Below are positions 4,416-27,363 of a stretch of 32,000 bases of DNA, piece by piece. A model generated the notes under the pieces. The model made no database searches. It was not told the origin of the DNA and was given only the letters and a program-made list of their open reading frames with translations. The DNA comes from Buttiauxella ferragutiae ATCC 51602. Lineage in GTDB: Bacteria; Pseudomonadota; Gammaproteobacteria; Enterobacterales; Enterobacteriaceae. Positions within the stretch are counted from its first letter, which is position 1, and every line of letters starts with the position of its first letter. The stretch is from assembly GCF_001654915.1 (NCBI RefSeq), contig NZ_LXEQ01000033.1. One strand, 5' to 3'. The translations under genes and the position numbers were made by a program.

Positions 4416-4509
4416 TGTAATATCCTTTGAAAGTTAATTAATACCTATATGTTTTGGCATCAGATGCTAGCTTATTATGCACTATCAATTTTATTTGTCA
4501 GAAGTATAT

Positions 4510-4909: not shown

Positions 4910-4916
4910 TTCAATT

Positions 4917-4942
4917 AAACCATGCATTACGGTGCATGGTTT
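4917..4942 (+). terminator. Perfect 10-bp stem hairpin downstream of the psu remnant (copy of 17905-17930)
   Basis: aaaccatgca-ttacgg-tgcatggttt. The T-tract is only 3-4 nt, so the terminator function is tentative. Conserved in both satellite copies. Confidence 0.4.
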
Positions 4943-5043
4943 TGCATGTAAAACCCCGTATTTTTCACACCTCATCACCCCAGAGCTGGCGCGGCTCCGG
5001 GGTGTTCATGCACCTGTATTAAAAGCCACCCATGAAGCGGGCA

Positions 5044-5062
5044 GGCGTGGCGGGGATAGCAT
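5044..5062. other. cos cohesive-end sequence (P2/186 type) of the decayed satellite
   Basis: GGCGTGGCGGGGATAGCAT is 18/19 identical to the phage 186 cohesive end as I recall it (GGCGTGGCGGGGAAAGCAT). It is identical to the copy at 18032-18050. Confidence 0.65.
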
Positions 5063-5157
5063 TGCGCGCCAGCGCAGATTTATTCATGTATTTAAATTTA
5101 ATGCTAGAGGCATACTAAATGACAACCTATCAAGTCTCTAGTGTAAGTGGTTTATAC

Positions 5158-8072: not shown

Positions 8073-8086
8073 GTGAGTCTAGCTCC

Positions 8087-9167
8087 TTATTTATTAGCGT
8101 TATTCACAAATATTCCCCACCAAAACATTAAATCTTTTCTTTTTTCAAGATAGGTTGATCGATTATAAGCTCGGCGTACTTCGTTTTTATCACTATGTGC
8201 TAAAGCGGCCTCAATAACATCTGAACTTAGACCCGCTTCATTCATTGCAGTGCTGGCGATAGAGCGTAATCCATGTGCAACTAACTTAGCACCAAAACCG
8301 ATTCGTTTTAAAGCAGCGTTAGCCGTCTGGCTATTCATTGGTTGCTTTGGATCATTTCTACTTGGAAAAACATGTTCACGATGAGCACTAATAGGCTTCA
8401 TTACTTCCAGGATTTCTAACGCCTGAGGAGATAAAGGAACAATGTGTTCGCGTTTGGCTTTCATTCGTTCGGCCGGGACTGTCCATAGTTTGGCATCGAG
8501 ATCGATTTCCTCCCATCGACTACCGGAAGCCTCAGAAGGGCGTACTAGCGTCAGGAGCTGCCATTCGATTAGACATCGAGTCGATACGGATAGATTAGAC
8601 ATAACCAAAGAGCGCATCAGCTTTGGCAGTTCTTCCGGTCGCAGCGTTGGCATGTTTTGTTTTTTGGGCTTCTCAAAAGCCATACCAACACCTGACGCCG
8701 GATTGGCATCAATCAAACCGGTGTTAACTGCGTAAATCATAATTTCGTTAATGCGCTGCACCAGGCGGCGAACAGTCTCCAGTGCTCCCCTCGCTTTAAT
8801 AGGCTCAAGGGCTTCAACTAGCGTTCTGGCTTTGATTTCCTGAACGGGGATCTCCCCAATGGCCGGGAATACGTCTTTATCCAGAGAACGCCAAATATCC
8901 TTTGCGTAATCTGGGGTAACGCTTTTGCTTTTGAGCTGGAACCAGTTAGCGGCCACGGTTGAAAAAATATTGTCGAGGGTAATTTGTTGTTGTTCCTCTG
9001 TGACTTCGGCTTGAACTTGCGGAACGATGCCTTTGGCTAACAATGATAAATAGCCAGCTCGTAATGCTCTGGCATCCGCAAGCGAAAGGGCAGGGAAGGA
9101 ACTTAAACCCACCATCGTCCTTTTTTGGTGGTCGGTAGTTGATGACGAAAGAGCCAGGGCTTTTCAC
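8087..9167 (-). pseudogene. P4-type tyrosine integrase, frameshifted and 5'-truncated
   Basis: The 342-aa ORF is roughly 90% identical by eye to residues 58-400 of the intact Int at 20702-21904 and keeps HGLRS...Y catalytic motifs. The upstream homology (INYRPPKK vs RYQRPTTKK) is in another frame, after an A6 vs A7 tract difference near 9120-9135. Homology is lost beyond about 9165, so roughly the first 40 codons are missing. Confidence 0.8.
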
Positions 9168-9254
9168 TGTAGTCTTAACTCTGACGTTTTCCGTATTCCC
9201 ACATCCAGGTCAGGCGTTTCCTGCACAGCAATGGCAGCGGCACCCTACATTTTT

Positions 9255-9285
9255 GGCGGATGACGCTGCGCTTATCCGCCCTACA
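9255..9285. repeat. REP (repetitive extragenic palindrome)-like element
   Basis: ggcggatgacgctgcgcttatccgccctaca carries the typical enterobacterial REP ending CTTATCCGNCCTACA. It is closely related to the REP pair at 27364-27424. Confidence 0.6.
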
Positions 9286-9337
9286 ACTCACTGAATTAAT
9301 TCCGGTTTATCAGTCTTCCACACCAAACCACAGGCAC

Positions 9338-9369
9338 AAAAAAGCCCGCGTAACTTTCGTTAAGCGGGC
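9338..9369 (-). terminator. Rho-independent terminator (island-borne homologue of the terminator that follows ssrA)
   Basis: The minus strand reads gcccgc-(13-nt loop)-gcgggc followed by TTTTTT. It is homologous in position and sequence to 22031-22062. Confidence 0.6.
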
Positions 9370-9410
9370 TTTCGACTTCATCAAGTGGCTCTGGTAACCA
9401 CTGACGGAGG

Positions 9411-9428
9411 ATTTTGGTGGGCTGGGGG
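9411..9428. repeat. att core: partial copy of the tmRNA 3' end (junction between the two tandem satellites)
   Basis: attttggtgggctggggg vs attttggtggagctgggggg at 22105-22124 (one base missing). About 70 bp of flanking sequence on its left is also homologous to 22031-22109. Confidence 0.75.
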
Positions 9429-9490
9429 AATCTGAATTTTATCTATAAGTGGATGTATATTAATAATATTTATTAATTCAACTTTCCTGT

Positions 9491-9513
9491 GTATACCTAA
9501 GCGTATACCAATT
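9491..9513 (+). repeat. Putative integrase arm-type binding repeats (attR arm of the intact satellite)
   Basis: gtatacctaagcgtataccaatt contains GTATACC twice. A near-identical 23-mer lies at 21955-21977, with an inverted aattggtatacg at 21922-21933 next to int. Confidence 0.5.
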
Positions 9514-9788: not shown

Positions 9789-10808
9789 TTACTTTCCCAT
9801 AAAGACACCGTTACCAGGTGTTTTCATTTTTTCAAGCCATTGAGCAATCGTCGTTTTGTTAGCCTCTTCTATGCTATATCCACGTGCATGGCAGTCTGAA
9901 AGGCCACCCGGAGAGATCCCTGAGGTCGTCACAATGAGTCCGGACTCTGCCTTTTCCCATTCAACATCGGCCCATAAAGCTTTTACTACTGTGCGATCAA
10001 TTTTATTCTTATATCTCTTACACTGAACTAAAATAAGTGGGGGTTCACCTGCATTTCTATTTTCTTTCCAGACACGCACATCGATACCTCCGTCATTGCG
10101 CCCTGGACCAAGTTCAACATCATATCCCTCACGCGTAAAGTATTCAGCCGTTAATCCTTCAAATTTACGCCAGTGCATTTCGTTTAACTTATCAGTATTT
10201 CGCTGTAAATAATCAATAAATCTCTGATCGATAAAATCACCATACTCACTTTCTAGAGATTCAGACTCAAAAAGCTCTTTAAGAGCTATTTCATCATTCC
10301 AATTTACTTTTCTAATGTCGCTAAGGCGGCGGTGCATATCATCTACATTGCCTTTGATAAATTCTATACTCATATCAAAGCCGGTTTTTCCAAACTTCTG
10401 TGCGCAATCCTTCATAAAAGGCGTTGGGTCTAGAGAGCTACCTCCTTCTTTACTTGTTTTTGCTATGGCGAGTTTTAGATGTACTGACCACAAACTCATT
10501 ATTTTTTGAAAAATAGCTGAAAGCTTTGGGTCGTCTCGGTATTTATGATAAAGAACGATAGTACTCGGAATGCACCCTGGTGTTTCAATGCTTCCAAGTT
10601 TAAATAAAATATGAGCAAACATTTCATCAACATCTTCTGGGTATATTCTTATATAATTCTCATCAGGTGCTGATAATGACTTTCTGAAACTTGAGCCATC
10701 TGGGAATAGTTCAATAATTTCATTTTTATCTAAGGTTAAACCTGTTTTGAATCCTGTGGATTCCCCTAAGACTGACACAAGTTCTAAATTTTTGAAGGTT
10801 ATAGCCAT
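9789..10808 (-). CDS. Mrr-cat (PD-(D/E)xK restriction endonuclease) domain protein with an unrecognised ~210-aa N-terminal domain
   Basis: 339 aa. The C-terminal region FEGLTAEYFTREGYDVELGPGRNDGGIDVRVWKE...PLILVQCKRY fits the Mrr_cat pattern (FE.L...L....GY.V......DGGID....x..VQCK). GAGGAAA RBS. AT-rich relative to alpha. Confidence 0.75.
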   Translation of the reverse strand: MAITFKNLELVSVLGESTGFKTGLTLDKNEIIELFPDGSSFRKSLSAPDENYIRIYPEDVDEMFAHILFKLGSIETPGCIPSTIVLYHKYRDDPKLSAIFQKIMSLWSVHLKLAIAKTSKEGGSSLDPTPFMKDCAQKFGKTGFDMSIEFIKGNVDDMHRRLSDIRKVNWNDEIALKELFESESLESEYGDFIDQRFIDYLQRNTDKLNEMHWRKFEGLTAEYFTREGYDVELGPGRNDGGIDVRVWKENRNAGEPPLILVQCKRYKNKIDRTVVKALWADVEWEKAESGLIVTTSGISPGGLSDCHARGYSIEEANKTTIAQWLEKMKTPGNGVFMGK

Positions 10809-11218: not shown

Positions 11219-13549
11219 TTATTTTGCTGTGGGTTCATCGCATTTCGGCAGCCAATCGGAGTTGCTTTCCTCCTTGAGCGCAAGATTGGTCTGTATTCCC
11301 TGATTCGTTCGTCGCTTGTCATAGTTCAGGCCGTACTCTTTGAGCATGGCCGACAGCCCTTTACCGAACATTGTGAGGCTTAGCGTGTTTTTATAGCCGT
11401 GAGCTTCCATGTATATCAGATAGGCGTGATATAGGTAGATACGGGGCTGCCGTGGAATAATGTTAGCGTTCCCCATGTACATTCCATCAGGTTCTGGCAG
11501 CGCTTCGAGATAGCCGCAAAAATCAAACGTTGGGTCAGCATCACGTTTAATGCTGAGCGCCTCGTCGGAGTTCTGCTGCGCCTGTAGCAGATTACGTGCC
11601 GTAGCCGGTTGGCTGAACTGCTGCATAAGCTGGCGCACGATGACGGCCAGCTCCTGCGAGATTTTATTCCTGAGCTGCGGGTCGCGTTCTTCCGGGGCAA
11701 TCTGCTCCGGGAAGTGGAGTATTACACGACGACGGGAGACACCGCCGCTGCGGTCGGTAAAGCGCATAGGGTTGTTGTTAACGGCCAGAATCACCGCCGG
11801 AATATGGGTCGAATACGCATCCTTGTATTTCGGATCAACTGAGACCGCATCACCGCCGGTAATGGCCTTGAGACCTGCACCGTCCCCGCTCCATTTCTCC
11901 TGGTCAGGCAGAATGATTAGCGAGTAGCCAATCACTGCTGCACGTTCGCGTGATGATTCCAGCGTCTCGATGGTGGCTGAGGTGGTGTTGTCCTTCCCGG
12001 CAAGCATGGTCGCAATTTCGGCCATGATACTTTTCCCGCTTCCCCCTGGACCGGTCACTTCAAGAAAAAGCTGCCAGTCGTAGCGGTTCGCCAGCACCAT
12101 AAACAGGGCTGCGAGAATAATGTCGCGCTTCTGTGCGTTCCGGCCTGCGGCACGGTCGAGCCATTGCCAGAAATGCGGCGCATCGCGCTCCAGTGTTTCC
12201 CCGGCCACCGGCGGGGTGAAATCCACATCACATAATGTTCTCAGCCAGTGCGTTTTGCTGTGCGGATTAAATATGCCGCTGGTTGTATCGAGTACGCCGT
12301 TTCGGAAACCGATTAAACGCCGTGCCGGGGCTTCATGCTGCGCCAGAATAAGCTTGAGGGTATCGACCACCGCCGAGATTTTCCCGGACGAGAAACCCGC
12401 ACCGATACGCTGGAACAGTGCCGCCACATCGCGGGCAAACTGCGTGGACGGCAGCACTTTCCAGGCACCGGCTTCATAGCGGGAAATTATCTCGCCGTTC
12501 GGGTCAACGGCCAGCGCATGGCCGTAATGCTCAGAAACGCGCATCGCCTTTTCACTGGTACTCATGGCGGTAAATTCGGCCTCGCTCATTTGCTCGAACG
12601 GGCTAACCGCCGGTGCTTTTACGGTTTCCTGCAATGCGCTGCGGGTGGCTTCTTCCCCGTGCTGCATAAATGCATCATTCCAGTCACCAAATACCGGCGG
12701 CAGCGCGACCATTCCCTGACAGGTATTTGCAGCGGCTGCGGCTTTGGTCTGCCCGTCGCCGTTGAGGTCACGGTCGGCAGCAATGATGATTTGCTGTGCC
12801 GGGTGCCGTTCCCGGACAAGGCTTGCCAGAGAAAGAAGGTTCACGGACGAGAGCGCCACCAGAACGGTATCGCCGGTGAGCTGGTTCACCGTCAGGCCGG
12901 TGGCGTAACCCTCCACTAACCAGAGCCGTTTTGAGGCGGTGTTTTTCCCCTCGATGGTGTGGCAGGTGCCTTTCACCTGACCGCCTTTGAGCGTGCGTTT
13001 GGTGCCACCGGCGTTGATGAGCTGGAGGTTAACCAGTTCCCCCTCCGGGGTGTGCAGCGGCACAAGCACATCACCGGCGCGGTAAGTGATGGTCGCCACT
13101 TTATGCGTGGTGGTCAGCACCTGACAGGCTCGCTGTGCTAACCCCTTGCGGGGGAGATAGGCATTGCCGGTGGTCGTGCGGCTCGCTTCCAGTAAACGGG
13201 CGGCCAGCGCGGCGGCCTCTTTCATCGCTTTCTCGCTGTCCGGGGCACTGGCGACTTCATCCGCTGGCACCGGCGGCAGATTGCCGGTCACGCTGTTGAC
13301 CTGGCTTGCCGCTTCCGCAACCGACACGGCCAGCGCTTTTGAGACCAGACTCAGGCCGTCACCGGCTCCGCACTGGTTACAGTACCAGGTGCCGCGCCCG
13401 TCTTTGTCGTCAAAGCGAAAACGGTCTTTACCCTGACACACCGGACAGGGCTGATGGCGGTTAAGCACCACATTCACGCCCAGCGCCGGGAGGATGTGCG
13501 GCCACTGACCTTTAGCGGCGTTCACGGCTTCGGTAACTTTCATGTTCAT
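11219..13549 (-). CDS. P4 alpha-type primase-helicase (zinc-ribbon primase + TOPRIM + SF3/D5 NTPase)
   Basis: 776 aa (P4 alpha is 777 aa from memory). CPVCQGKDRFRF...WYCNQCG zinc ribbon. TOPRIM-like LWLVEGYATG and IIIAADRDLNGDG. Walker A GPGGSGKS. AAGGAAA RBS. Confidence 0.9.
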   Translation of the reverse strand: MNMKVTEAVNAAKGQWPHILPALGVNVVLNRHQPCPVCQGKDRFRFDDKDGRGTWYCNQCGAGDGLSLVSKALAVSVAEAASQVNSVTGNLPPVPADEVASAPDSEKAMKEAAALAARLLEASRTTTGNAYLPRKGLAQRACQVLTTTHKVATITYRAGDVLVPLHTPEGELVNLQLINAGGTKRTLKGGQVKGTCHTIEGKNTASKRLWLVEGYATGLTVNQLTGDTVLVALSSVNLLSLASLVRERHPAQQIIIAADRDLNGDGQTKAAAAANTCQGMVALPPVFGDWNDAFMQHGEEATRSALQETVKAPAVSPFEQMSEAEFTAMSTSEKAMRVSEHYGHALAVDPNGEIISRYEAGAWKVLPSTQFARDVAALFQRIGAGFSSGKISAVVDTLKLILAQHEAPARRLIGFRNGVLDTTSGIFNPHSKTHWLRTLCDVDFTPPVAGETLERDAPHFWQWLDRAAGRNAQKRDIILAALFMVLANRYDWQLFLEVTGPGGSGKSIMAEIATMLAGKDNTTSATIETLESSRERAAVIGYSLIILPDQEKWSGDGAGLKAITGGDAVSVDPKYKDAYSTHIPAVILAVNNNPMRFTDRSGGVSRRRVILHFPEQIAPEERDPQLRNKISQELAVIVRQLMQQFSQPATARNLLQAQQNSDEALSIKRDADPTFDFCGYLEALPEPDGMYMGNANIIPRQPRIYLYHAYLIYMEAHGYKNTLSLTMFGKGLSAMLKEYGLNYDKRRTNQGIQTNLALKEESNSDWLPKCDEPTAK

Positions 13550-15189: not shown

Positions 15190-15272
15190 ATGGGTGGTAG
15201 CCCGGACGGGGGTAGGAATACCGGTAACTATGAGAACCGGCCAGCCCGAAAGCTGCCCCGCCCGGGCCACCA
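15190..15272 (-). ncRNA. Candidate P4 CI / C4-type antisense immunity RNA
   Basis: On the minus strand, GGTGGCCCGG (15271-15262) pairs with CCGGGCTACCACC (15205-15193) as an outer stem. The enclosed region contains UCAUAGUUA and UUCCUAC. These are complementary to bipartite AACUAUGG / GUAGGAAC sites upstream (15369-15394) and downstream (15147-15188) on the same transcript. Confidence 0.5.
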
Positions 15273-15338
15273 TTATCTGACCTGAACCACAGTGTAAACA
15301 CCATAGTTCAAAATATGGGTGTGCCTGAGCAACGACGT

Positions 15339-15361
15339 AAAAAAAGACGCATGGCGCGTCT
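15339..15361 (-). terminator. Rho-independent terminator inside the early-operon leader
   Basis: The minus strand reads agacgc-gccat-gcgtct followed by seven T. Confidence 0.55.
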
Positions 15362-15423
15362 GGTGTCGCCATAGTTAAACACGGGTTCCTACGCCCGGCT
15401 GTCGATTTTGCGACAGCGGAAAA

Positions 15424-15453
15424 ACTATAACCGCAAACCTGGAAGGGATGCAA
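15424..15453 (-). promoter_or_regulatory. Candidate sigma70 promoter for the leftward early/immunity transcript (PLE-like)
   Basis: The minus strand reads TTGCAT-18 nt-TATAGT. The position relative to the CI-like RNA is compatible with P4 PLE, but another candidate (TTTACA-15 nt-GATAAT at about 15276-15302, just upstream of the RNA) cannot be excluded. Confidence 0.3.
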
Positions 15454-16302: not shown

Positions 16303-17040
16303 ATGACCCAGACCATAACTATTCCTGAATCCCTGAAAGCCGGTATGCAGCGTCTTGAAGCGGCAAAGGCGGCTCATCTTGAGAACGCCCGCAAAATTGA
16401 TGAGACCGAAACGGCCATCAACCGCGCCCGCGAACAGAAAGCGGAGCTGGAGCAGGAAAACGGTGAGGACACGAATAGCTGGCGCAACCTGTTCCGCGCC
16501 GGTGGTGCTGTGCTGACGGATGACCTGAAAAAGCGTCACATTGAACGTGTGGCACAGCGTGAGCTGGCACAGGAATGCGACAATCTGGCACAGGTGCTGG
16601 AGTTTGAACGGGAGAAGCTAAAGGGAGCCTGTGATTCGAGCGCAAAAGCGTACCGACAGGCTCATCTGTCCGTTTTGCGTGACTATGCTGAGGGTGAACT
16701 GAAACAGGCACTGGAAACCGCCTGCGGCGCACTTGTCCGGGCAATGAAGCTAAAAGGCCTGGTATTAGATAACCCCCTGGCTAACAACACCGGTCATCAG
16801 GGCTACGTCGAACCGGATAAAGCGGTCATGCATCAGGTCACCCTGTTTCTTGAGCAGAAAATCAGTGGGTATAACCTGCGTCTTACCGACGAACCGGTGC
16901 TCTACAAAACCGGCCTGTCATCCCTGACGCTGCCACATATGGATCATAATGTGGCGGGAACACCATTCGCCAATAAGGCATTTTACGAGCGCATGCAGCA
17001 ACTGGAAGCGCAGCTCAAAGCGAAAGGGTTACTGTCATGA
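16303..17040 (+). CDS. sid: Sid, capsid size-determination (external scaffold) protein
   Basis: 245 aa (P4 Sid is 244 aa from memory). AAHLENAR, HIERVAQRELAQECDNLAQVLEFEREKLKGACDS and the C-terminal KAKGLLS match P4 Sid as I recall it. Order sid-delta-psu. Confidence 0.8.
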   Translation: MTQTITIPESLKAGMQRLEAAKAAHLENARKIDETETAINRAREQKAELEQENGEDTNSWRNLFRAGGAVLTDDLKKRHIERVAQRELAQECDNLAQVLEFEREKLKGACDSSAKAYRQAHLSVLRDYAEGELKQALETACGALVRAMKLKGLVLDNPLANNTGHQGYVEPDKAVMHQVTLFLEQKISGYNLRLTDEPVLYKTGLSSLTLPHMDHNVAGTPFANKAFYERMQQLEAQLKAKGLLS

Positions 17041-17276
17041 TGCACTGTCCATTCTGTAAAACCTCAGCCCATTCCCGTTCAAGCCGCTATCTGTCTGACA
17101 GCGTCAAGCATCGCTATTACCAGTGCCAGAATGTGCTCTGCTCTGCGACCTTCCGGTCGATGGAGTCCGTTGAGTCGATTATCCGACAGCCGGTGGCCAG
17201 TGATGAGCCTGATGATGATTTTATCCAGGCAGAAATGGATAAAGAGCCGAAACAGCGACCATCAGCGACACAATGA
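17037..17276 (+). CDS. delta: Delta/Ogr-family zinc-finger late transcription activator
   Basis: MHCPFCKTSAHSRSSRYLSDSVKHRYYQCQNVLCSATF is the Ogr/Delta C2C2 zinc-finger pattern. ATGA overlap with the sid stop. Single-domain size (79 aa). Confidence 0.85.
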   Translation: MMHCPFCKTSAHSRSSRYLSDSVKHRYYQCQNVLCSATFRSMESVESIIRQPVASDEPDDDFIQAEMDKEPKQRPSATQ

Positions 17277-17294
17277 CCAGACGGGGATGAATCA

Positions 17295-17870
17295 ATGAGC
17301 GACACACCATTACAGCAGGCCTTTGCAGTGTGTCAGGCGAATAAAACAGCCTGGCTGAATAAAAAAGATGAGCTGGCCGCAGCAGAGACGGAACTGGATG
17401 AACACCTCGCACCGGGAGCGCCCCGGAACGCAGAGAAAATCCGCTACCTGAGCGAATACATCGACATTAAGCAGTGGGAAATTACCTGTGCGGCTGGCCG
17501 CTATATCCGTTCACATGAAGCGGTGCAACACATCAGCATCGGGAATGCCCTGGGCGCTTTTATGACGCAGAACGGGGCGGCACTGGTCAATACACTGGCA
17601 CCGGAATTAATGGGTATTAATCAGTTTCCTGCGGCAGTCAGAGAGCTGGCGATACGACGAGCGACGCATTACATCGGTGAAGCCCTGCGGGGGTATCTGA
17701 CCACGAGTCAGGAAATCAATTACACGGCTGAAAACAACGACATTTTAACGGCCATCGGATTCAGGCCTGATGCGGCTTCGCGTGTTGATAATCAGCAAAA
17801 ATACACACCGGTACAGAACCGTGTTTATGCGCACCGGCAGGCAGAACTGAGCCAGCAAAACCCCGTTTAA
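17295..17870 (+). CDS. psu: Psu, polarity suppression / capsid decoration protein
   Basis: 191 aa (P4 Psu is 190 aa). LQQAF..CQ.NK.AWL..K.ELAAAE and AAGRYIRSHEAVQHISI match P4 Psu as recalled. Confidence 0.85.
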   Translation: MSDTPLQQAFAVCQANKTAWLNKKDELAAAETELDEHLAPGAPRNAEKIRYLSEYIDIKQWEITCAAGRYIRSHEAVQHISIGNALGAFMTQNGAALVNTLAPELMGINQFPAAVRELAIRRATHYIGEALRGYLTTSQEINYTAENNDILTAIGFRPDAASRVDNQQKYTPVQNRVYAHRQAELSQQNPV

Positions 17871-17904
17871 AATACGCCAAAAAATACTGCTATTTAATTC
17901 AATT

Positions 17905-17930
17905 AAACCATGCATTACCGTGCATGGTTT
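17905..17930 (+). terminator. Perfect 10-bp stem hairpin between the convergent psu and cargo genes
   Basis: aaaccatgca-ttaccg-tgcatggttt. Duplicated at 4917-4942. Weak T-tract. Confidence 0.4.
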
Positions 17931-18031
17931 TGCATGTAAAACCCCGTATTTTTCACACCTCAACATCCCAGAGCTGGCACGGCTCCGGGGTGTTCATGCA
18001 TATGCATTAAAACCCACCCATGAAGCGGGCA

Positions 18032-18050
18032 GGCGTGGCGGGGATAGCAT
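18032..18050. other. cos cohesive-end sequence (P2/186 type) of the intact satellite
   Basis: GGCGTGGCGGGGATAGCAT is 18/19 identical to the recalled phage 186 cos and lies downstream of psu, as in P4. Confidence 0.65.
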
Positions 18051-18135: not shown

Positions 18136-19035
18136 TTAACGAAGTTTTATTAAATTGCTCTGGTATATCCAATTGTTCGTCCTGAAATTGTAAAGGGAGA
18201 ATCTGATTATATATTCCCAGTCGTATGTTAAATTGTCATTTATTGAAATAAAACTATCCACCAAATCTCTGTGTGTGTTAATGGTAATACTACCTTTATC
18301 AAGTAATTCTTTATATTTTCTCAGTTGCTTTGCATTTCTCCAAAAAGAGTTTGAAATCATTTCCTGATGCAATTTTTCAATTTTAATTGTTCGTAGATGG
18401 AAGTTGATGTGTTTTTTTATTATATAGGGGAGGTTATTGTTTGCAGTAACAATAAATTTCATATCTACAGAGGGGTATGGGTTTTCTTTAAATATAACAA
18501 TGAGTAATGGTTCGTTTTGTAGTAATGATTGATAATCATCATAATAAGGATTGATTATTCTCCTCCATGCGCCGAATGATTTTTTTGCACCTTTGTCTTT
18601 GTTACAATCACCACAGCATGGAATAAGATTTTCAGGTAGGAATGCGAATTGGGGTAGGAGCGCTTTGTTGTAATAATGGTCTAATGTTCGACATGGGGAC
18701 ACGCCACAGTATGGACATAAAATCCCATTGTTAACATATGCATTCCTAATATCATCTATGAAATTAGTTTTTCTTTTTTTACTTGGGTTTTTGTAAATCC
18801 ATTCTAATTGGGTCTGGAATTTAGAAAGGTTTATGCGATTGTTGTGACTTAACCTTTTATTTTGAAGCATCTCATAATTATATTTAATTAATTCATGCAA
18901 CCAAACTGTTTTTTTTGAACTTAAATCTAAAATTCCAACTGGCTCATTTAATGATGTCATGATGTCTATTGCAGATGCTAAATTAACATCATTTTCAATT
19001 TTGCTTATCTCCAAAGGCTTTGTTAAAGGTCTCAT
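18136..19035 (-). CDS. HNH endonuclease-domain protein (299 aa), partner of the upstream ATPase
   Basis: CPYC (107-110), DH (119-120), N136 and CCGDCN (140-145) form an HNH zinc-finger core. ATGA overlap with the ATPase stop. Strongly AT-rich. Confidence 0.8.
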   Translation of the reverse strand: MRPLTKPLEISKIENDVNLASAIDIMTSLNEPVGILDLSSKKTVWLHELIKYNYEMLQNKRLSHNNRINLSKFQTQLEWIYKNPSKKRKTNFIDDIRNAYVNNGILCPYCGVSPCRTLDHYYNKALLPQFAFLPENLIPCCGDCNKDKGAKKSFGAWRRIINPYYDDYQSLLQNEPLLIVIFKENPYPSVDMKFIVTANNNLPYIIKKHINFHLRTIKIEKLHQEMISNSFWRNAKQLRKYKELLDKGSITINTHRDLVDSFISINDNLTYDWEYIIRFSLYNFRTNNWIYQSNLIKLR

Positions 19036-20702
19036 TTTAATTTTGCCTCCATTATTATTTTATTAATTAAGTCTGAAGGAAGGTGAGAGTAATTACTTAA
19101 TATTTCTGAGATCGTATTGTTTTTTGCTATATTGGAGATTTCTTCTCTGAAAATAGCGTTTGAGTGTAAGTCGCCGAAAACATCAATCATTATTTGATGT
19201 GTATCTGCGCCAAAGGTCTCAATTTTCGTATTTTTGAACCTTGTAACGCCATTGTTTCGATGCAAAATAGTTACTTGCTGAGAGGGGATTTCTCTTAATA
19301 CTAATGCTGAATGTGTTGTTGCGATAGCAACTGAATTTGTGTCTCTTAATATATTTGTAAGTGAATTTATAAAGTGGGTTAGCAAACTTGGATGCAGGTA
19401 GTTTTCAGGTTCTTCTATTAATATTAGGCTGTTTGTTTCGACGATTGAAATCAATGAAAACATACATGTCAAAAATGCCAGTTGTCCTGAGCTAAGCTCA
19501 AATGGTTGCTCATCTTTATAAAAAACAATTTCCTCGTTTGGGAGGGTGTATTCAATTTCTGTGCCAGTTAACAGATCCAGGTTCCCATTTAAGTTGACCA
19601 GCGTATAACGGTCTATCAAATTGGAAAAACTTTTAGATTTTATCTCATCACTATTAGTTTTAATTCCTATTGAGAAGTTAGGGATTATTGTTTCAGTGAC
19701 TTTATCTAATAATTGACTTTGTTTAAAAAAACCTTCTTTTGTGGAGTCGCGTTCTTTCACCATTTCCATTAAAGATAATAAAGTTAACTTTCTCCCTCTA
19801 ATAAATAAATTATTGTAATGTTTCTTGGAAGTAAGGGATATAAAATTATAGTTGTTTGTTTTGGAACGGTTTTTTGTAATATTTGTAGGGCGGTAACAAC
19901 TGTCGTTAATCGTGTTGGATAATGCAATTATTCTACTAAATACCTCATTTTTATCATGAGAATCATGCTTTAAAGAAAGGTAGTTTTTAGCAATTCTATT
20001 CAATAAAAATGTTTTACCACTACCGTTTTTCCCTATTAATATATGTATAGGTATGTTTATGTTGTGATATTTTGAAAAATTTAACTTGTACTTATTATTT
20101 TCAAAGTCCTCAATGGTTAAATGTGATGGTGGTTGTATGTTATAAATTATATTATTTGTGTTTACCAGGTGTTTATAGCCATTGGTAAACGCATAATAAC
20201 TGGCGCTATTGTTAAGTAGTAGATCAAAAAATATTTTGTTAGAATTTTCTCGTATGAATCTATGAGATTTTTTTATATTAAAACCAGCGCCTAAATCTTT
20301 TATCGTATACAGAAAATCTAAAGCATCATTTGTATTTAGGTTTTTATTAATGTACCGATAAGTTCCCTCGTCATCAATTTGACTCAGGAAGTAATAATTT
20401 AAGTCGGTTTCTATATCTCGTAAAGATATTTTATTGGAGGATAATTTTTTGAATAAGTCATTTTCGTTGTCATTACGCCCAACTAAAAGCATGGTGAGAG
20501 TGTTGGAATTAGTGTTGGCTTTGTATTTTTTGAAATGAAAATGATCTATTTCATTGTTAAGGTTGATAGCTATTTTTAGAACAAAAATGTGGTTGTTGTG
20601 GATTTTATAAATTGATTTTTTAATATCAATAACTTCAAGGGTAATGCGATCTTGGTTATTGTCCTGTGGCTTTCCAAAAATAATATCATTAATTTTTATC
20701 AT
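19032..20702 (-). CDS. ABC/SMC-type (AAA_15/21-like) ATPase with a ~220-aa unrecognised N-terminal domain (556 aa)
   Basis: Walker A GKNGSGKT (res 224-231; nt 20010-20033), signature LSSGQ (402-406), Walker B LILIEEPE (426-433), H-loop TTHS (462-465). Its ATG overlaps the int TAA (TAATG). Confidence 0.8.
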   Translation of the reverse strand: MIKINDIIFGKPQDNNQDRITLEVIDIKKSIYKIHNNHIFVLKIAINLNNEIDHFHFKKYKANTNSNTLTMLLVGRNDNENDLFKKLSSNKISLRDIETDLNYYFLSQIDDEGTYRYINKNLNTNDALDFLYTIKDLGAGFNIKKSHRFIRENSNKIFFDLLLNNSASYYAFTNGYKHLVNTNNIIYNIQPPSHLTIEDFENNKYKLNFSKYHNINIPIHILIGKNGSGKTFLLNRIAKNYLSLKHDSHDKNEVFSRIIALSNTINDSCYRPTNITKNRSKTNNYNFISLTSKKHYNNLFIRGRKLTLLSLMEMVKERDSTKEGFFKQSQLLDKVTETIIPNFSIGIKTNSDEIKSKSFSNLIDRYTLVNLNGNLDLLTGTEIEYTLPNEEIVFYKDEQPFELSSGQLAFLTCMFSLISIVETNSLILIEEPENYLHPSLLTHFINSLTNILRDTNSVAIATTHSALVLREIPSQQVTILHRNNGVTRFKNTKIETFGADTHQIMIDVFGDLHSNAIFREEISNIAKNNTISEILSNYSHLPSDLINKIIMEAKLK

Positions 20703-21904
20703 TAATATGCTCTCATTTTTTTATAAACGACAATTCCCCACCATTGCATTAGCTCATAACGAGCCTCTAAGTAGGTAGATCTATTGTAAGCACGACGAAC
20801 TTCATTTTTATCTGAATGCGCCAAGGCTGTTTCAATTACATCTGCGTTAAATCCGGCCTCATTCATTGCTGTACTTGCAATTGAGCGCAGCCCATGTGCG
20901 ACTAACTTTCCACCATATCCGATGCGTTTTATAGCAGCATTAGCCGTTTGGCTATTCATTGCTTGCTTTGGATCATTCCTGCTCGGGAAAACATGTTCTC
21001 GGTGAGAGCTAATAGGCTTCATTACCTCCAGAATCTCTAATGCCTGAGGAGATAAAGGAACAACGTGCTCGCGTTTGCCCTTCATTCGTTCTGCTGGAAT
21101 AGTCCACAGCTTGGTATCGAGATCGATTTCTTCCCATCTAGTACCGGAAGCCTCCGCAGGGCGCACAAGTGTCAGGAGCTGCCATTCAATCAAACAACGA
21201 GTCGAAACCGAAAGGTTAGACATCACTAGTGAGCGCATGAGGTTTGGAAGTTCTTCCGGTCGTAAGGTTGGCATGTTTTGCTTTTTAGGCCGCTCAAAAG
21301 CCATACCAACACCGGATGCCGGGTTTGAATCAATCAAACCGGTGTTAACCGCATATATCATTATTTCATTGACGCGCTGTACCAAACGGCGAACTGTCTC
21401 AAGTGCTCCACGCGCTTTGATGGGTTCAAGTGCTTCAACTAACGTTCTGGCTTTGATTTCCTGAACAGGGATCTCACCAATGGCTGGGAACACGTCTTTA
21501 TCCAGAGAACGCCAAATATCCTTCGCGTAATCTGCTGTGACGCTTTTGCTTTTGAGCTGGAACCAGTTAGCGGCCACGGTGGAGAAAATACTGTCGAGGG
21601 CAATTTGCTGCTGTTCCTCTGTGACCTCTGCTTGAACCTGTGGGTCGATGCCTTTGGCTAACAATGAAAGATATTCAGCTCGTAATGCTCGGGCATCCGC
21701 AAGCGAAAGGGCAGGGAAGGAACCTAAACCAACCATCGTTCTTTTTTTGGTGGTCGGTCTTTGATACCGAAAACGCCATAGCTTTTTTCCGGTCGTCTTA
21801 ACGATAAGGAATAAACCTTCGCCGTCATGAAGCGTCAGCTCTTTCTCGCCTGCTTTTGCTCGTAGAACTTCGGTGTTAGTGAGGGGGCGCGTTGTCCGTG
21901 CCAT
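20702..21904 (-). CDS. int: P4-type tyrosine integrase (intact, 400 aa)
   Basis: N-terminal arm-binding DUF4102-like region (LTLHDGEGLFLIVKTTGKKLWRFRY). Catalytic AHGLRS...RRAYNRSTY. Adjacent to the ssrA 3' end. Confidence 0.9.
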   Translation of the reverse strand: MARTTRPLTNTEVLRAKAGEKELTLHDGEGLFLIVKTTGKKLWRFRYQRPTTKKRTMVGLGSFPALSLADARALRAEYLSLLAKGIDPQVQAEVTEEQQQIALDSIFSTVAANWFQLKSKSVTADYAKDIWRSLDKDVFPAIGEIPVQEIKARTLVEALEPIKARGALETVRRLVQRVNEIMIYAVNTGLIDSNPASGVGMAFERPKKQNMPTLRPEELPNLMRSLVMSNLSVSTRCLIEWQLLTLVRPAEASGTRWEEIDLDTKLWTIPAERMKGKREHVVPLSPQALEILEVMKPISSHREHVFPSRNDPKQAMNSQTANAAIKRIGYGGKLVAHGLRSIASTAMNEAGFNADVIETALAHSDKNEVRRAYNRSTYLEARYELMQWWGIVVYKKMRAY

Positions 21905-21921: not shown

Positions 21922-21977
21922 AATTGGTATACGTTTTTAGGCCTACATCTTACCGTATACCTAAACGTATACCAATT
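21922..21977. repeat. Putative integrase arm-type repeats (int-proximal att arm)
   Basis: aattggtatacg (21922-33, inverted) and gtatacctaaacgtataccaatt (21955-77). The latter is near-identical to 9491-9513. Confidence 0.5.
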
Positions 21978-22109: not shown

Positions 22110-22473
22110 TGGTGGAGCTGGGGGGAGTTGAACCCCCGTCCGAAATTACTACGCCGTCGGTACTACATGCTTAGTCGTATCTTTACATTCGCCGGGCAAC
22201 TGCGGATAGACACGCCATTACCAAACTATCCTGATTAGTTTTAGTGCTTCAACCCCAGGCAAGGTTTACACACGATCTCTTTTGGGTTTGACTTCTCTTG
22301 ATCCCCGTCTTAAGAGCGGAAGCTAGGGAGAGAAGGCTCTAAGCAGGGTATTAAGCTGCTAGTGCGTAGTTTTCGTCGTTTGCGACTATTTTTTTGCGGC
22401 TTTTTACGAGGCAAACCGCCCCTCGGCATGCACCTTGGGTTTCGCGAATCCCGTCGAATCCAGAATCAGCCCC
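22110..22473 (-). ncRNA. ssrA: tmRNA (transfer-messenger RNA)
   Basis: The reverse complement starts GGGGCTGATTCTGGATTCGACGGGATT and ends GGAGCTCCACCA. It carries the tag reading frame GCAAACGACGAAAACTACGCACTAGCAGCTTAA (ANDENYALAA*). Collinear with E. coli ssrA. Confidence 0.97.
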
Positions 22474-22530: not shown

Positions 22531-23721
22531 TTAACGTTCACGTAGCGCTTCGCGGGCGCGGTTAAACGGTTTAATCAGGTAATCGACGATGGTTTTTTGC
22601 CCGGTTTTGATGTCGACGGTGGCGACCATACCTGGCGAAATTGAAAAATGGTGTCCGGCTTTGTTCGCCAGGTAGTCCTGTTGGGTGCGGATAAACACCC
22701 GGTAATAGACGATTTCTGGTTTCACTTTGTCCTGAATGGTGTCCGGCGAGATGGTTTCAACGATGCCCTCCAGCCCGCCGTAAATGGCGTAATCGTAGGC
22801 GGTGACTTTCACCAGCGCACGCTGGCCTGGGTGGATAAACGCGATGTCACGCGGTGAGAGGCGCGCCTCAATCAGCAAGTGGTCATCGAGCGGCACGATT
22901 TCCATCATTTCGCCGTTTGGCGGGATCACGCCACCAATGGTCGTTACCTGGATATTTTTGACAATGCCGCGCATTGGCGAGCGCACCGTCATGCGCGATA
23001 CCGAATCTTCACGGCCTTTGATAACCGCTGAAAGCATATCCACTTCGGCGTTCGCTTTGGAAAGCTCCTCGCGGGCTTGTACGTAATATTGTGAACGCAG
23101 GTCGGTGATTTTGAGTTGCAGGTCGCTTTTTTGCCGCTGCAAGCGCAGCACTTCCACGTTACTGGCGGCACCGCTTTTTGCCAGCCGTTGGGTTATGCCC
23201 AGCTCTTGATTGACCGAAACCAGCGCGTCTTTAATATCCGCAGCCGAGTCGTTAAGTTGTGCGCGGCGGCTTTTATATAGCCGGGTTTCGGATGCGGTTA
23301 GCTCCGGCCAGGCTTTTAGCGAGTCGGGAAAGACCAGCGGCAGGTCGTTCACTTCTGCGTTCAACCGCACGCTGGATGCCAGTGATGCGCGGTAACGTGC
23401 GGCACTTTCGCCGACGTTCGATTGCGAACGCGTGGGGTCGAGTTGGGCAACGATTTGCCCGGCTTCAACTTTGTCGCCTTCGTGCACCAGCAACTGGGTG
23501 ACGATGCCGCCGTCGAGCGACTGAAGGATTTGCTCGCGCGAGCTGGGAACCACTTTTCCGGTGCCGGTCGAAACCTCATCAAGCGTGCCAAACCATGCCC
23601 ACACGCCGAGCAAAATAAACAGTAAAACGCTGAGAGTGATAATGCGGCTCGCGCCGGAAAACTCGCTTTCACGCTGGATATCCGGGTCGTCCATTGCGGC
23701 ATCATGCTGACTGGTTTTCAT
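22531..23721 (-). CDS. bapD: HlyD-family type I secretion membrane-fusion protein
   Basis: 396 aa. One N-terminal TM segment (IITLSVLLFILLGVWAWF), a coiled-coil middle and a typical HlyD C-terminus. 20-nt overlap with the ABC gene. The symbol is from my recollection of the Salmonella bapABCD-ssrA arrangement. Confidence 0.8.
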   Translation of the reverse strand: MKTSQHDAAMDDPDIQRESEFSGASRIITLSVLLFILLGVWAWFGTLDEVSTGTGKVVPSSREQILQSLDGGIVTQLLVHEGDKVEAGQIVAQLDPTRSQSNVGESAARYRASLASSVRLNAEVNDLPLVFPDSLKAWPELTASETRLYKSRRAQLNDSAADIKDALVSVNQELGITQRLAKSGAASNVEVLRLQRQKSDLQLKITDLRSQYYVQAREELSKANAEVDMLSAVIKGREDSVSRMTVRSPMRGIVKNIQVTTIGGVIPPNGEMMEIVPLDDHLLIEARLSPRDIAFIHPGQRALVKVTAYDYAIYGGLEGIVETISPDTIQDKVKPEIVYYRVFIRTQQDYLANKAGHHFSISPGMVATVDIKTGQKTIVDYLIKPFNRAREALRER

Positions 23722-25888: not shown

Positions 25889-27291
25889 GGCTGGATCTCC
25901 AGTGACTGGATGGTGCGATGCTCCAGGCCAAATGCGTTGCGCAACCGGCCGCTGTTATACAGGCAGTTGAGCTGCAATTGATGAAGTTGGCTCAGGGTTT
26001 GTTGTCGAGCGAAGCGTGCCTGGAAAACTTCCTGTTCGGCGTTAAGCACATCCAGCAGCGGGCGCGAACCCAAACCGAGATATTGCTGTTGATACAGTTC
26101 GCGCGTTTGCGCGCTTAACTCTTCCTGGCGTTGCAGGACTTGAATGGCACCCATCAGGCCAAGCGCCTGGCTGCGCGATTCCATTAACTTCTGGCGAATA
26201 TCCAGGCGTGTGCGCTGAACACCGGATTGCGCGGCTTCAACAGCATGGCTTGCGGCGTTGCGGCGGGCGGTTAATCCACCCCCCTGATAAATCGGCATTT
26301 CAACTTTGATAAACGCCGAGTATTGCGTGCGATCCAGCACTTCGTGGCTGGCGTATTTGTCGTTGAGATAGTGCTGAACCTGCGGTTCCAGTGAAATGGT
26401 TGGCGTCATCTGTGCGTTGGCGTAATCCAGATTCGCCTGCGCGACGCTGGCCTGCGCCCAGGAGGCGAGAACGGCAGGCACTAAGCGGTCATCCGGTTTG
26501 GCAACGTCGCAGCTTTTGCTGAGTTTGTCCGGGAAATCGTTGCTAATACCATTGAGGCTATTCCAGCCCAGCCAGCTCATTAATGTGGCCTGTGCGCTGT
26601 CGAGGTTGGCCTGGTATTGAATCAGTTGCGAGCGGGCGGATTCAATACGGGCGTTGGTTTGCACCACATCGGACATCGACGTGGCACCTTCGTTGTTGCG
26701 CTGTTCGGTCAAACGGCCAATCGCGCTTAATGCTTCGAGCTGATCTTTGGCGATATCGACCATTTGTTGCCACATCTGCGCCTGAACCAGGGAAACGGCG
26801 GTGTCGTGGCCGACGTTATCAATACTCACCAGCACGTTGGCCTGTTCTTGCGCCACGCCTGCGCTTTCGGCGCGTACCTGGCTTGAGACTTTGCCGAAGT
26901 CGTAGAGCATTTGTGAGATGGAAAGCACCAGCGACGGGCTGAAACCGCTGTCGGTGTAGCCGTTGCTGTAGCCGTTATTCATGCCCGCGCTGATTTGCGG
27001 ATAGTATTTGGATTTCGCGACGTTGACCTGTTCGGACTGGCCGTAAAGTTTGCCGATGGATTCGTGAATGCTCGGGTGCCAGTTTACCGCGCGGTTGACG
27101 GCGTCGTTGAGCGTGAGCGTTCCGGGCGCAGGCGCGTTGAGCGGCAGGGATGACGACCCGTCAAGGTTTGGCAGTTCGTGTTGCTGAGCAAGCCCCTCAG
27201 TGGTGATGAACTGTGGCGTCTCTTCGGCATGCGTTTGGGCTACACATAGGCTGCATGCCAGCCACAGTGTAAACGGCTGTAATTTTCCCAT
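25885..27291 (-). CDS. bapB: TolC-family outer-membrane channel of the T1SS
   Basis: 468 aa. Signal peptide MGKLQPFTLWLACSLCVAQTHA. Two OEP/TolC-like repeats rich in coiled-coil Q/A/L segments. Confidence 0.8.
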   Translation of the reverse strand: MGKLQPFTLWLACSLCVAQTHAEETPQFITTEGLAQQHELPNLDGSSSLPLNAPAPGTLTLNDAVNRAVNWHPSIHESIGKLYGQSEQVNVAKSKYYPQISAGMNNGYSNGYTDSGFSPSLVLSISQMLYDFGKVSSQVRAESAGVAQEQANVLVSIDNVGHDTAVSLVQAQMWQQMVDIAKDQLEALSAIGRLTEQRNNEGATSMSDVVQTNARIESARSQLIQYQANLDSAQATLMSWLGWNSLNGISNDFPDKLSKSCDVAKPDDRLVPAVLASWAQASVAQANLDYANAQMTPTISLEPQVQHYLNDKYASHEVLDRTQYSAFIKVEMPIYQGGGLTARRNAASHAVEAAQSGVQRTRLDIRQKLMESRSQALGLMGAIQVLQRQEELSAQTRELYQQQYLGLGSRPLLDVLNAEQEVFQARFARQQTLSQLHQLQLNCLYNSGRLRNAFGLEHRTIQSLEIQP

Positions 27292-27363
27292 AGTTTGTCC
27301 CTTTTAAAAGTCACTACGTTCTAATTAGTGTTGCTATTGCTTGCCTGGTTTTGTCTGATTTTT

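Follow-up and report, generated by a model that had tools for sequence, protein, structure and literature searches.

Two genes on a P4-like satellite of Buttiauxella ferragutiae ATCC 51602, one for an ABC-type ATPase and the other for an HNH nuclease, raise the question of whether they form an anti-phage system and, if so, whether that system is a new one, as a preliminary description had suggested, or a branch of Septu (PtuA/PtuB). The window (the whole 32,000 nt stretch of DNA that was analysed) contains the satellite integrated adjacent to ssrA, the tmRNA gene that marks the integration site (nt 22110–22473, minus strand; found by ARAGORN and by Rfam RF00023, 282 bits). Integrase, cos, psu, delta/ogr, sid, the alpha primase-helicase and the CI/C4 immunity RNA are all present, and in P4 order. 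The tyrosine integrase (400 aa; nt 20702–21904, minus strand) has the Pfam domains Arm-DNA-bind_3, Phage_int_M and Phage_integrase. The late genes lie together on the plus strand (nt 16303–17870) and comprise a sid-like gene of 245 aa (nt 16303–17040; phrog_6165), ogr/delta (nt 17037–17276; Pfam Ogr_Delta, 7e-19) and psu (nt 17295–17870; Pfam Psu, 1.5e-82). A P2/P4-type cos 19-mer, GGCGTGGCGGGGATAGCAT (nt 18032–18050, plus strand), matches the P2/P4 cos sequence at 16 of 19 positions.

The variable slot from integrase to cos is filled by the two genes, as first described. The start codon of the ATPase gene overlaps the integrase stop codon by one base (TAATG), and the HNH gene stops 85 bp from the cos 19-mer. 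Both ORFs were confirmed as co-oriented minus-strand genes that overlap by ATGA at nt 19032–19035; both are intact, their translation is coupled, and the pair as such is conserved. The cargo is also more AT-rich than the satellite core, as had been stated, with a GC content of 30.5% versus 47% for int, 53% for sid–psu and 58% for alpha. A scan for promoters and terminators between nt 17850 and 22100 gave sites no more numerous than in shuffled sequence. The int–cos slot is a documented defence hotspot of P4, and Septu is among the systems listed there (PMC9122126). A second copy of the cos 19-mer, at nt 5044–5062, is identical to the first. It belongs to a second satellite remnant in the window, where the equivalent slot beside this other cos is occupied by SIR2-HerA, indicating that the content of the slot is interchangeable cargo.

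The short distance between the HNH gene and cos might instead point to an accessory nuclease of the HK97 gp74 type, aiding terminase in the packaging of the satellite. This is extremely improbable. P4-like satellites are packaged by the terminase of their helper, the slot at the second cos copy holds SIR2-HerA, and the HNH gene is always accompanied by the ATPase gene, also where neither cos nor any phage gene is present.

Full-length homologues of the cargo proteins (50–74% identity) occur in many genera, so these are not merely chance ORFs. The cassette was kept as a pair in all eight sampled loci, at identities from 23% to 100%, and at five of the eight it occupies the corresponding satellite slot, immediately after a P4-like integrase. 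Loci with homologous cargo in E. coli and Serratia have a satellite layout identical to that of Buttiauxella. Six complete E. coli genomes carry the homologue of that species (55% aa identity); megablast with the cargo as query, run on 5,426 E. coli genomes, matched the cos flank alone. Degenerate patterns derived from the family alignment proved too generic for scanning genome contigs, giving 12 distant ABC ATPases and no close family member among the matches listed. The cassette was also found outside phage and satellite contexts, on an Aeromonas chromosome and, in Rheinheimera, beside a toxin-antitoxin pair and a large helicase.

The upstream gene (nt 19032–20702, minus strand) encodes a PtuA-like ABC/SMC-type ATPase of 556 aa, assigned from its ORF and from profile and fold matches, and identical to the B. 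ferragutiae protein WP_064544258.1. Re-translation upheld three of the four motifs at the residues first given: Walker A (GKNGSGKT, residues 224–231, nt 20010–20033; G224, N226, G227, G229 and K230 invariant), Walker B (LILIEEPE, residues 426–433, nt 19404–19427, followed by LHP; E431, P432, E433, L436, H437 and P438 invariant) and the H-loop (TTHS, residues 462–465, nt 19308–19319; T463, H464 and S465 invariant). The ABC signature LSSGQ is at residues 403–407 (nt 19482–19496; S404 and G406 invariant), not 402–406. All four are on the minus strand, as is the sequence for the C-terminal helical domain (residues 496–556, nt 19035–19217), which has four helices in the AF2 model and is a putative PtuB-docking domain. 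This domain (73% mean identity) and the ATPase core are the best conserved regions of the protein.

The downstream gene (nt 18136–19035, minus strand) encodes a PtuB-like HNH nuclease of 299 aa (WP_064544254.1), identified from its ORF and modelled by AF2 with a pLDDT of 90. Its beta-beta-alpha-metal core and Cys4 zinc site (residues ~105–170, nt 18526–18723, minus strand) include C107, C110, D119, H120, N136, C141, C144, N145 and K148, all of them invariant columns in an alignment of 37 homologues. The core motifs CPYC (107–110), DH (119–120), N136 and CCGDCN (140–145) read as in the preliminary description and are likewise invariant there.

The combination of ATPase and HNH nuclease had been recognised as the logic of Septu, and comparisons of sequence profile and fold bear this out. 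Pfam places the ATPase in AAA_21/AAA_15, and the PADLOC PtuA model PDLC00282 matches it over residues 59–539 (9.3e-37; profile positions 40–497 of 520), as do 10 further PADLOC PtuA models. The family profile searched against the PDB returned PtuA proteins first (4e-13 to 4e-9), with OLD and AriA below them, and the 49 best Foldseek matches of the ATPase in the PDB were all PtuA chains (E from 6e-10 to 4e-5). The TM-scores against PtuA are low (~0.3–0.4 in Foldseek), and may be lowered by the N-terminal domain, which solved PtuA does not have, and by domain flexibility. Foldseek against viral structures (BFVD) gave generic ABC ATPases only, with no entry of the lambda Ea59 type near the top. 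For the HNH partner, the seven top Foldseek matches in the PDB were PtuB chains, although these are weak and inform at the level of family ranking only (best E = 1e-2, prob 0.97); phmmer against solved PtuB was likewise weak (E = 0.1–0.3). PADLOC PtuB (PDLC00336) matched the core only (1.1e-9), and phrog_10378 (HNH endonuclease) matched at 7e-19. Two NCBIfam models described as retron-associated HNH endonucleases scored under their cutoffs, the PtuB equivalog NF041761 at 21 bits (cutoff 150) and TIGR02646 at 13.7 (cutoff 52). Profile and fold support homology of the ATPase to PtuA and, more weakly, of the HNH partner to PtuB. The gene layout is that of Septu as well: the two neighbouring genes share one orientation and the ATGA overlap, the ABC/SMC-type ATPase has its full motif set (Walker A, signature, Walker B, H-loop), and the HNH protein has the HNH/Cys4 core.

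The JGI name for the HNH partner is '5-methylcytosine-specific restriction endonuclease McrA', and the ATPase has a weak, partial match to TIGR04435 ('restriction system-associated AAA ATPase'; 48 bits, cutoff 300), as might be seen if the pair were a McrA-like type IV restriction enzyme that depends on modification and is equipped with an ATPase motor. This is very unlikely, as the NCBIfam scores are far under cutoff, the HNH match is generic, Pfam detected neither an HNH nor a McrA-type DNA-binding domain in the partner, and the best profile and fold matches are PtuA and PtuB. The pair also differs from PARIS, OLD and Gabija. AriA/AriB, the OLD nucleases and GajA belong to the same AAA_15/AAA_21 class of ABC ATPases, and AriA (9e-15), GajA (1.7e-12) and OLD 6p74 (4e-9) match the Buttiauxella ATPase in part, but its effector is a separate HNH protein and not a Toprim or DUF4435 protein or domain, and it has no helicase partner. 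For PARIS in particular, there is no DUF4435/Toprim partner or fusion, and the AriA matches are partial and far weaker than those to PtuA and PDC-M01A.

Within Septu, the pair was compared with the stand-alone and the retron-borne forms. Stand-alone Septu (Doron 2018; E. coli 8EE4/8EE7/8EEA) is also a gene pair for an ABC ATPase and an HNH nuclease; its PtuA (8ee4/8eea) matches the Buttiauxella ATPase at 4e-9 by profile and at E~1e-7 by Foldseek, its PtuB (8eea_G) is among the top fold matches of the HNH partner, and neither its PtuA nor the Buttiauxella ATPase has a long coiled-coil insert (PMC12673091). The solved Septu PtuA is a protein of 465 aa which, judged by alignment offsets, is without the ~185-aa N-terminal domain of the Buttiauxella ATPase. 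PtuA of the type I-A retrons (Ec78/Eco7 and Ec83/Eco4; 'type II Septu') gave the best matches to the ATPase in the PDB, both in sequence (4e-13) and in fold (Foldseek 6e-10). It shares the C-terminal helical docking domain, and retron PtuB has a Cys4 zinc finger and catalytic His as in the HNH partner (PMC12673091). In contrast to the Buttiauxella protein, retron PtuA has a coiled-coil insert, and an N-terminal extension of only ~63 aa that binds RT/ncRNA (PMC12819146, PMC12673091). The two genes alone fill the satellite slot, their neighbours have no RT domain and Rfam detected no retron RNA, so the pair is not part of a retron.

A precedent for the architecture comes from the satellites themselves. 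In Table S1B of Rousset et al. 2022, an N-extended AAA_15/21 and HNH pair, labelled Septu, is recorded at 80 P4-hotspot loci (PMC9122126). System #17 of that study ('AAA_15/AAA_21 / HNH_4') occupies the same satellite slot as the Buttiauxella pair and is built alike, with ~215 aa ahead of the P-loop and an HNH partner of 281 aa carrying CxxC...DH...N...CxxCN. The HNH cores of the two are 34% identical (E = 4e-9), and the ATPases are linked via shared relatives and profile–profile comparison only; compared directly, the ATPases show marginal similarity, confined to the P-loop region (E = 8e-4), and #17 is a different subfamily. Conserved peptides of the Buttiauxella family were not found in the available portion of the supplementary tables.

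The closest named relatives of the pair are Ea59 and Ea31 of phage lambda. In both pairs the ATPase gene is followed by the HNH gene with a 4-bp overlap, the proteins are of similar size (525 and 296 aa in lambda; 556 and 299 aa in Buttiauxella), the ATPase has an N-terminal extension of ~190–210 aa before the P-loop, and the genes lie just beyond an integrase. The same PADLOC models cover both, matching the lambda proteins over their full lengths (8e-202, 9e-185, 6e-113) and the adjacent Buttiauxella genes as PDC-M01A (5.6e-49; residues 62–540, profile positions 49–528 of 552) and PDC-M01B (1.1e-30; residues 61–247, profile positions 56–237 of 282), which puts the pair in the PDC-M01 clade. 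PDC-M01B models make up 23 of the 25 top PADLOC matches of the HNH partner. The two pairs differ in that their identity is only 27–30%, with pairwise alignment limited to the ATPase and HNH cores, in that Ea59-type N-termini carry a 'WNDY' motif not evident in the Buttiauxella ATPase, and in their carriers, a P4-like satellite in one case and a lambdoid phage in the other. PDC-M01 is a candidate system of PADLOC, unpublished and not validated, and its calls coincide with Septu calls (PMC11811056). The literature searched held no paper linking lambda Ea59/Ea31 to Septu, no experimental test of the Ea59/Ea31-type clade, and no demonstrated defence phenotype for either the Buttiauxella or the lambda pair.

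The two lambda genes are in the dispensable b region adjoining int/attP. The ea genes are active early in the lytic phase and are not known to be expressed from the prophage, so the role of the clade may not be classical prophage-encoded defence. Ea31 and Ea59 were reportedly purified by Benchimol, Lucko and Becker in 1982 as a lambda-specified endonuclease. These points, together with the position of the cassette against int, with which it may be co-transcribed, would suit a nuclease module working for the mobile element and not in protection of the host, for example by degrading host or competitor DNA or by interfering with the helper phage in the lytic cycle of the satellite; the same may hold for lambda Ea59/Ea31. 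As an account of the Buttiauxella pair this is improbable, given that the same cassette is found away from phages and satellites in Aeromonas and Rheinheimera and that the slot is a documented site for defence systems. It also overlaps with a role in defence, as competitor exclusion by a satellite is anti-phage defence in practice. Judging from sequence and gene context, the pair is almost certainly a phage-defence cassette on a P4-like satellite.

The part of the ATPase that sets it apart is the region ahead of the P-loop (~210 aa), in which no motif had been recognised at first and for which Pfam and PDB searches gave no match. Its N-terminal domain (residues 1–~185; nt 20148–20702, minus strand) is modelled by AF2 as a beta-sheet and a helical bundle, mostly at pLDDT >85. 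Neither Pfam (17 members searched) nor the PDB by profile gave a credible match. It is the most variable and fastest-evolving part of the ATPase (37% mean identity, versus 62–73% elsewhere), and a search of 1.84 billion representatives returned eight matches, of which five are proteins of 551–571 aa typical of the family and three are shorter (175–202 aa). In that set there was no evidence of an independent family of this domain, which is confined to this ATPase architecture. By hhalign, the N-termini of the close family match those of the Ea59 type (90.9%, E = 1.1e-6, 114 columns), with the first ~60 residues uncovered; direct HMM comparison with the N-terminus of Rousset #17 was not significant (E = 43).

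Such a domain could argue for a mechanistically distinct system that shares just the ATPase and HNH parts list with Septu, its N-terminal domain being a dedicated phage sensor and its short insert leading to a different assembly. Walker A and the signature motif are indeed close together, as first noted (~180 aa apart, versus ~260 aa in retron-type PtuA), and the HNH partner is ~65–80 aa longer than solved PtuB chains (216–266 aa), with extra N- and C-terminal helices. We nevertheless consider this reading unlikely. Stand-alone Septu PtuA likewise has no coiled-coil insert (PMC12673091), PDC-M01 models cover both proteins, and the architecture, N-terminal extension included, is that of lambda Ea59/Ea31 and of the pair labelled Septu by Rousset et al., and so has already been seen and classified. 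The claim of a non-canonical system is not sustained by these matches. Its novelty had been made to depend on how fully the proteins matched classified systems, and the ATPase does so over most of its length, from residue 59 in PtuA and residue 62 in PDC-M01A onwards. The Buttiauxella pair is an ordinary further member of an already catalogued branch of Septu and no new kind of system. The locus is thus best explained, with good probability, as a two-gene Septu-family (PtuA/PtuB-like) ATPase–nuclease cassette of the lambda Ea59/Ea31 clade (PADLOC candidate PDC-M01), carried as accessory cargo in the int–cos hotspot of a P4-like satellite at ssrA.

If this cassette works like the PtuAB complexes solved for Septu and retrons, its ATPase would dimerise or oligomerise through its nucleotide-binding domains, and the conserved C-terminal helical domain of the ATPase would dock the corresponding domain of the HNH protein. 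Both proteins have such domains in their AF2 models, and in solved complexes the C-terminal helices of PtuA bind the CTD of PtuB (PMC12673091). The nuclease would be restrained by nucleotide binding until an infection cue, such as falling ATP or a phage protein, released nicking or degradation of DNA; the damage would then stop the phage from replicating, and the cell itself might be lost. Analogues for these steps are a 6:2 PtuA:PtuB complex, an ATP-inhibited nuclease and CTD–CTD docking (PMC12640716; PMC12673091; PMC12819146). PtuAB substrates vary by system (plasmid nicking, ssDNA, tRNA-Tyr; PMC12640716), and the target of the Buttiauxella pair therefore cannot be inferred from them. Speculatively, recognition of the trigger or higher-order assembly would fall most plausibly to the fast-evolving N-terminal domain specific to the clade, and a sensor role would be consistent with the variability of this domain, the highest in the protein. 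A more tentative possibility, less probable than not by some distance, is that the whole Ea59/Ea31-type clade, the Buttiauxella cassette included, works unlike characterised Septu, with the N-terminal domain recognising a phage component directly and setting specificity; lambda Ea59/Ea31 would then belong to a family for inter-phage competition or defence.

For Buttiauxella, a little-studied genus, the locus adds one more Septu-family cassette to the P4-satellite defence hotspot, and the stakes are small. The P4-like elements of the window stand in tandem, have identical cos sites and carry different defence systems (PtuAB-like and SIR2-HerA) in the same slot, and so illustrate the swapping of cargo cleanly. 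The N-extended PtuA clade (PDC-M01) takes in lambda Ea59/Ea31, making lambda a convenient model for the clade and for its variable N-terminal domain.

Two minus-strand ORFs were found at exactly the coordinates of the preliminary description, a PtuA-like ATPase of 556 aa (19032-20702) and an HNH partner of 299 aa (18136-19035), and they overlap by the ATGA noted there. Both are exact proteins of B. ferragutiae ATCC 51602 (WP_064544258.1 and WP_064544254.1), whose annotation does not go beyond 'AAA family ATPase / putative phage protein' for the former and 'hypothetical protein' for the latter. Re-translation placed Walker A (GKNGSGKT, 224-231), Walker B (LILIEEPE, 426-433) and TTHS (462-465) of the ATPase, and the HNH core of the partner (CPYC 107-110, DH 119-120, N136, CCGDCN 140-145), where they had been described; the LSSGQ signature is also present, at 403-407, one residue off its original position. 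The pair does lie between the integrase stop and cos, with the HNH stop codon 85 bp from a cos-type 19-mer (GGCGTGGCGGGGATAGCAT, 18032-18050), 16 of whose 19 bases match the P2/P4 cos sequence. Since the start codon of the ATPase gene overlaps the integrase stop codon (TAATG), the int, ATPase and HNH genes form a tightly packed unit that is probably co-transcribed. Scanning for promoters and terminators around the cassette gave nothing beyond shuffled-sequence expectation. The reported AT-richness of the cargo was borne out, with a GC content of 30.5% compared to 47% for int, 53% for sid-psu and 58% for alpha.

The ATPase matched the A profile of the PADLOC candidate family PDC-M01 (PDC-M01A; 5.6e-49, residues 62-540 against profile positions 49-528 of 552) and the long PADLOC PtuA model PDLC00282 (9.3e-37, residues 59-539), while the partner matched PDC-M01B (1.1e-30) and, more weakly, PtuB (1.1e-9). 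Pfam recognised no domain in the partner and none but AAA_21/AAA_15 in the ATPase; the partner also scored far below the cutoff of the NCBIfam retron-type PtuB model. A McrA-like type IV restriction enzyme, suggested only by a generic annotation of the partner as McrA and by sub-threshold matches, is very improbable. A PDB search with a 33-sequence family profile found solved PtuA first (retron I-A, 4e-13; stand-alone Septu 8ee4, 4e-9), with OLD and AriA ATPases ranking after it. The AlphaFold models were confident (ATPase pLDDT 79, pTM 0.79; partner pLDDT 90, pTM 0.86), and in Foldseek searches of the PDB the best 49 matches of the ATPase were all PtuA chains and the best seven of the partner were PtuB chains, albeit weak (best E = 1e-2, probability 0.97). 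These profile and fold matches, and the location in a P4 hotspot, support the original view of the pair as defence cargo with a Septu logic. Septu and SIR2+HerA are among the known systems of that hotspot (PMC9122126), and PDC-M01 calls by PADLOC coincide with Septu calls in a survey of Bacillus genomes (PMC11811056). Neither a reverse transcriptase nor a retron RNA was found at the locus among ORFs, neighbouring domains and Rfam matches, ruling out the retron-coupled form of PtuAB.

By tblastn against phage genomes, the ATPase matched ea59 and the partner ea31 of phage lambda. In lambda and HK630 (2934-5398 of the compared locus L022; NC_001416, ~24.8-26.8 kb), these genes sit just past int/attP with a 4-bp overlap, and their products are an AAA ATPase of 525 aa and an HNH endonuclease of 296 aa. 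Ea59 itself matched PDC-M01A (8e-202) and PtuA PDLC00282 (9e-185, positions 3-518 of 520) end-to-end, as Ea31 did PDC-M01B (6e-113). The P-loop of Ea59 sits at about residue 195, so that it has the same N-terminal extension as the window ATPase. Ea31 and Ea59 were reportedly purified as a lambda endonuclease in a 1982 study; none of the papers searched names ea59 together with Septu. In Table S1B of Rousset et al. 2022, entry #17 (80 loci, 'AAA_15/AAA_21' with 'HNH_4') is labelled Septu, and has ~215 aa before the P-loop and an HNH partner of 281 aa. Its HNH core is 34% identical to that of the window partner (E = 4e-9), and its ATPase, including the N-terminus, is related to proteins that are relatives of the window ATPase.

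In the model, the N-terminal ~185 residues of the ATPase form a beta-sheet and then a helical bundle; consistent with the absence of a recognisable motif ahead of the P-loop, they have no Pfam or PDB sequence match. Among 1.84 billion representatives only eight proteins matched this domain, none with a different architecture. Profile-profile comparison of window-family with Ea59-type N-termini gave 91% probability (E = 1.1e-6, 114 columns, residues ~64-181). The extension is thus not new: Ea59-type proteins and Rousset #17 share it. A (D/N)W(N/D)(D/N)(Y/F)(G/S)(Y/F)xT motif, marking the first beta-hairpin of the domain, is conserved in Ea59-type N-termini (relatives P0036-P0049, Rousset #17 and lambda Ea59); it is not recognisable in the close family of Buttiauxella and other Enterobacterales. 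The spacing between Walker A and the signature was confirmed to be short (~180 aa, versus ~260 aa in retron-type PtuA), and stand-alone Septu PtuA likewise lacks the coiled-coil insert (PMC12673091). The preliminary description had proposed a non-canonical architecture and possibly a distinct system, but the PDC-M01 and PtuA models already cover it, Ea59/Ea31 and Rousset #17 have this architecture, and a near full-length match to a classified family, N-terminus included, was largely found. A truly distinct system is contradicted as a classification and unlikely as a mechanism. The cassette most probably belongs to the Septu family, in the clade of lambda Ea59/Ea31, which PADLOC catalogues as PDC-M01, and novelty in the kind of system is unsupported.

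Both proteins have full-length homologues in Aeromonas (72-74% identity), E. coli, Shigella and Salmonella (55-58%), and in Serratia, Yersinia, Klebsiella, Enterobacter, Citrobacter, Pantoea, Hafnia, Pectobacterium and Rheinheimera. The HNH gene immediately follows the ATPase gene in all eight sampled loci (23-100% identity); five of these (the window, E. coli, two Serratia and Enterobacter) are directly downstream of a P4-like integrase, and three are in chromosomal or island-like settings. A nuclease serving the element itself, as lambda Ea59/Ea31 might, is weakened by such cassettes outside phages and satellites, and is distinctly unlikely. Of 5,426 complete E. coli genomes, 6 carry the E. 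coli version, annotated 'AAA family ATPase' and 'HNH endonuclease'; the Buttiauxella version has no close match in E. coli at the DNA level. Catalytic and metal-binding residues are invariant in alignments of both families. Within the close family, mean identity is 37% for the N-terminal, 62% for the ATPase and 73% for the C-terminal helical domain of the ATPase, and 81% for the HNH core and 52-54% for the flanking regions of the partner. A JGI metagenome locus (3300047446; L023, 3300-6900) carries a partner 100% identical to that of the window, with a 556-aa ATPase. There the cassette follows a shorter, 344-aa integrase and precedes transthyretin-like, GGDEF and EAL genes unrelated to a P4 satellite, suggesting transfer of the cassette, alone or along with int, from one element backbone to another.

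Several features identify the carrier as a P4-like satellite: the tmRNA (22110-22473, minus strand), the tyrosine integrase with an Arm-binding domain (20702-21904, minus), the cos 19-mer, Psu, Ogr/Delta and a Sid-like protein (16303-17870, plus), the C4/CI immunity RNA with targets (15190-15430, minus; Rfam P4-type C4 antisense, 82 bits, a1/b1 targets, isrK) and an alpha-type primase-helicase (11219-13549, minus). A 23-nt direct repeat, GTATACCTAA(A/G)CGTATACCAATT, occurs at 21955-21977 and 9491-9513 (96% identical, each just upstream of an integrase), with a weak copy at 2331-2353. The spacing of the first two copies, 12.46 kb, is close to the length of a P4 genome, which makes these two candidate att or int-regulatory repeats bounding the first satellite; within the window, the 3' end of ssrA has no duplicate. 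A gene at 9789-10808 (minus; 38.5% GC), with the alpha primase gene on one side and the apparent terminal repeat of this satellite on the other, is possibly further cargo. Its 339-aa product carries an Mrr_cat restriction-endonuclease domain at its C-terminus (1e-22) and weakly matches PADLOC PDC-S02. The gene next upstream of ssrA codes for an HlyD-family adaptor (396 aa, 22531-23721, minus), at the position where smpB is annotated in Serratia loci with homologous satellites. In the chromosomal flank (27013-27356, plus), Rfam also identified the Hfq-binding sRNA isrL.

In tandem with this satellite is a second, degraded P4-like element (4592-9513), which retains an integrase (8087-9115, ~76% identical at the nucleotide level to the first int) without an Arm domain, a cos 19-mer (5044-5062) identical to the 18032-18050 copy, and a psu remnant (4592-4909, 89% nt identity to 17647-17946). 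Its int-cos slot is filled by a SIR2 and HerA defence pair (6921-8072 and 5158-6933; 33% GC), so that neighbouring satellites carry different cargo, PtuAB-like and SIR2-HerA, in one and the same hotspot. That SIR2-HerA fills the corresponding slot next to the second cos, that the ATPase partner is obligatory and that loci without phage genes also carry the pair leave a negligible chance that the HNH protein is an accessory of cos cleavage.

In Septu and retron PtuAB, a PtuA dimer or oligomer binds PtuB via C-terminal helical domains (PMC12673091, PMC12819146). Stand-alone PtuAB forms a 6:2 complex whose DNA nicking is inhibited by ATP, and substrates vary from system to system (PMC12640716). 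Counterparts of these elements are present in the window cassette: the ATPase contains a complete ABC site and a conserved C-terminal helical domain, and the HNH/Cys4 nuclease likewise carries a C-terminal helical domain. By analogy, the Septu-family pair would form an ATPase-nuclease complex held back by nucleotide and unleashed on infection, with the variable N-terminal domain as the prime candidate for recognising the trigger or for assembly.
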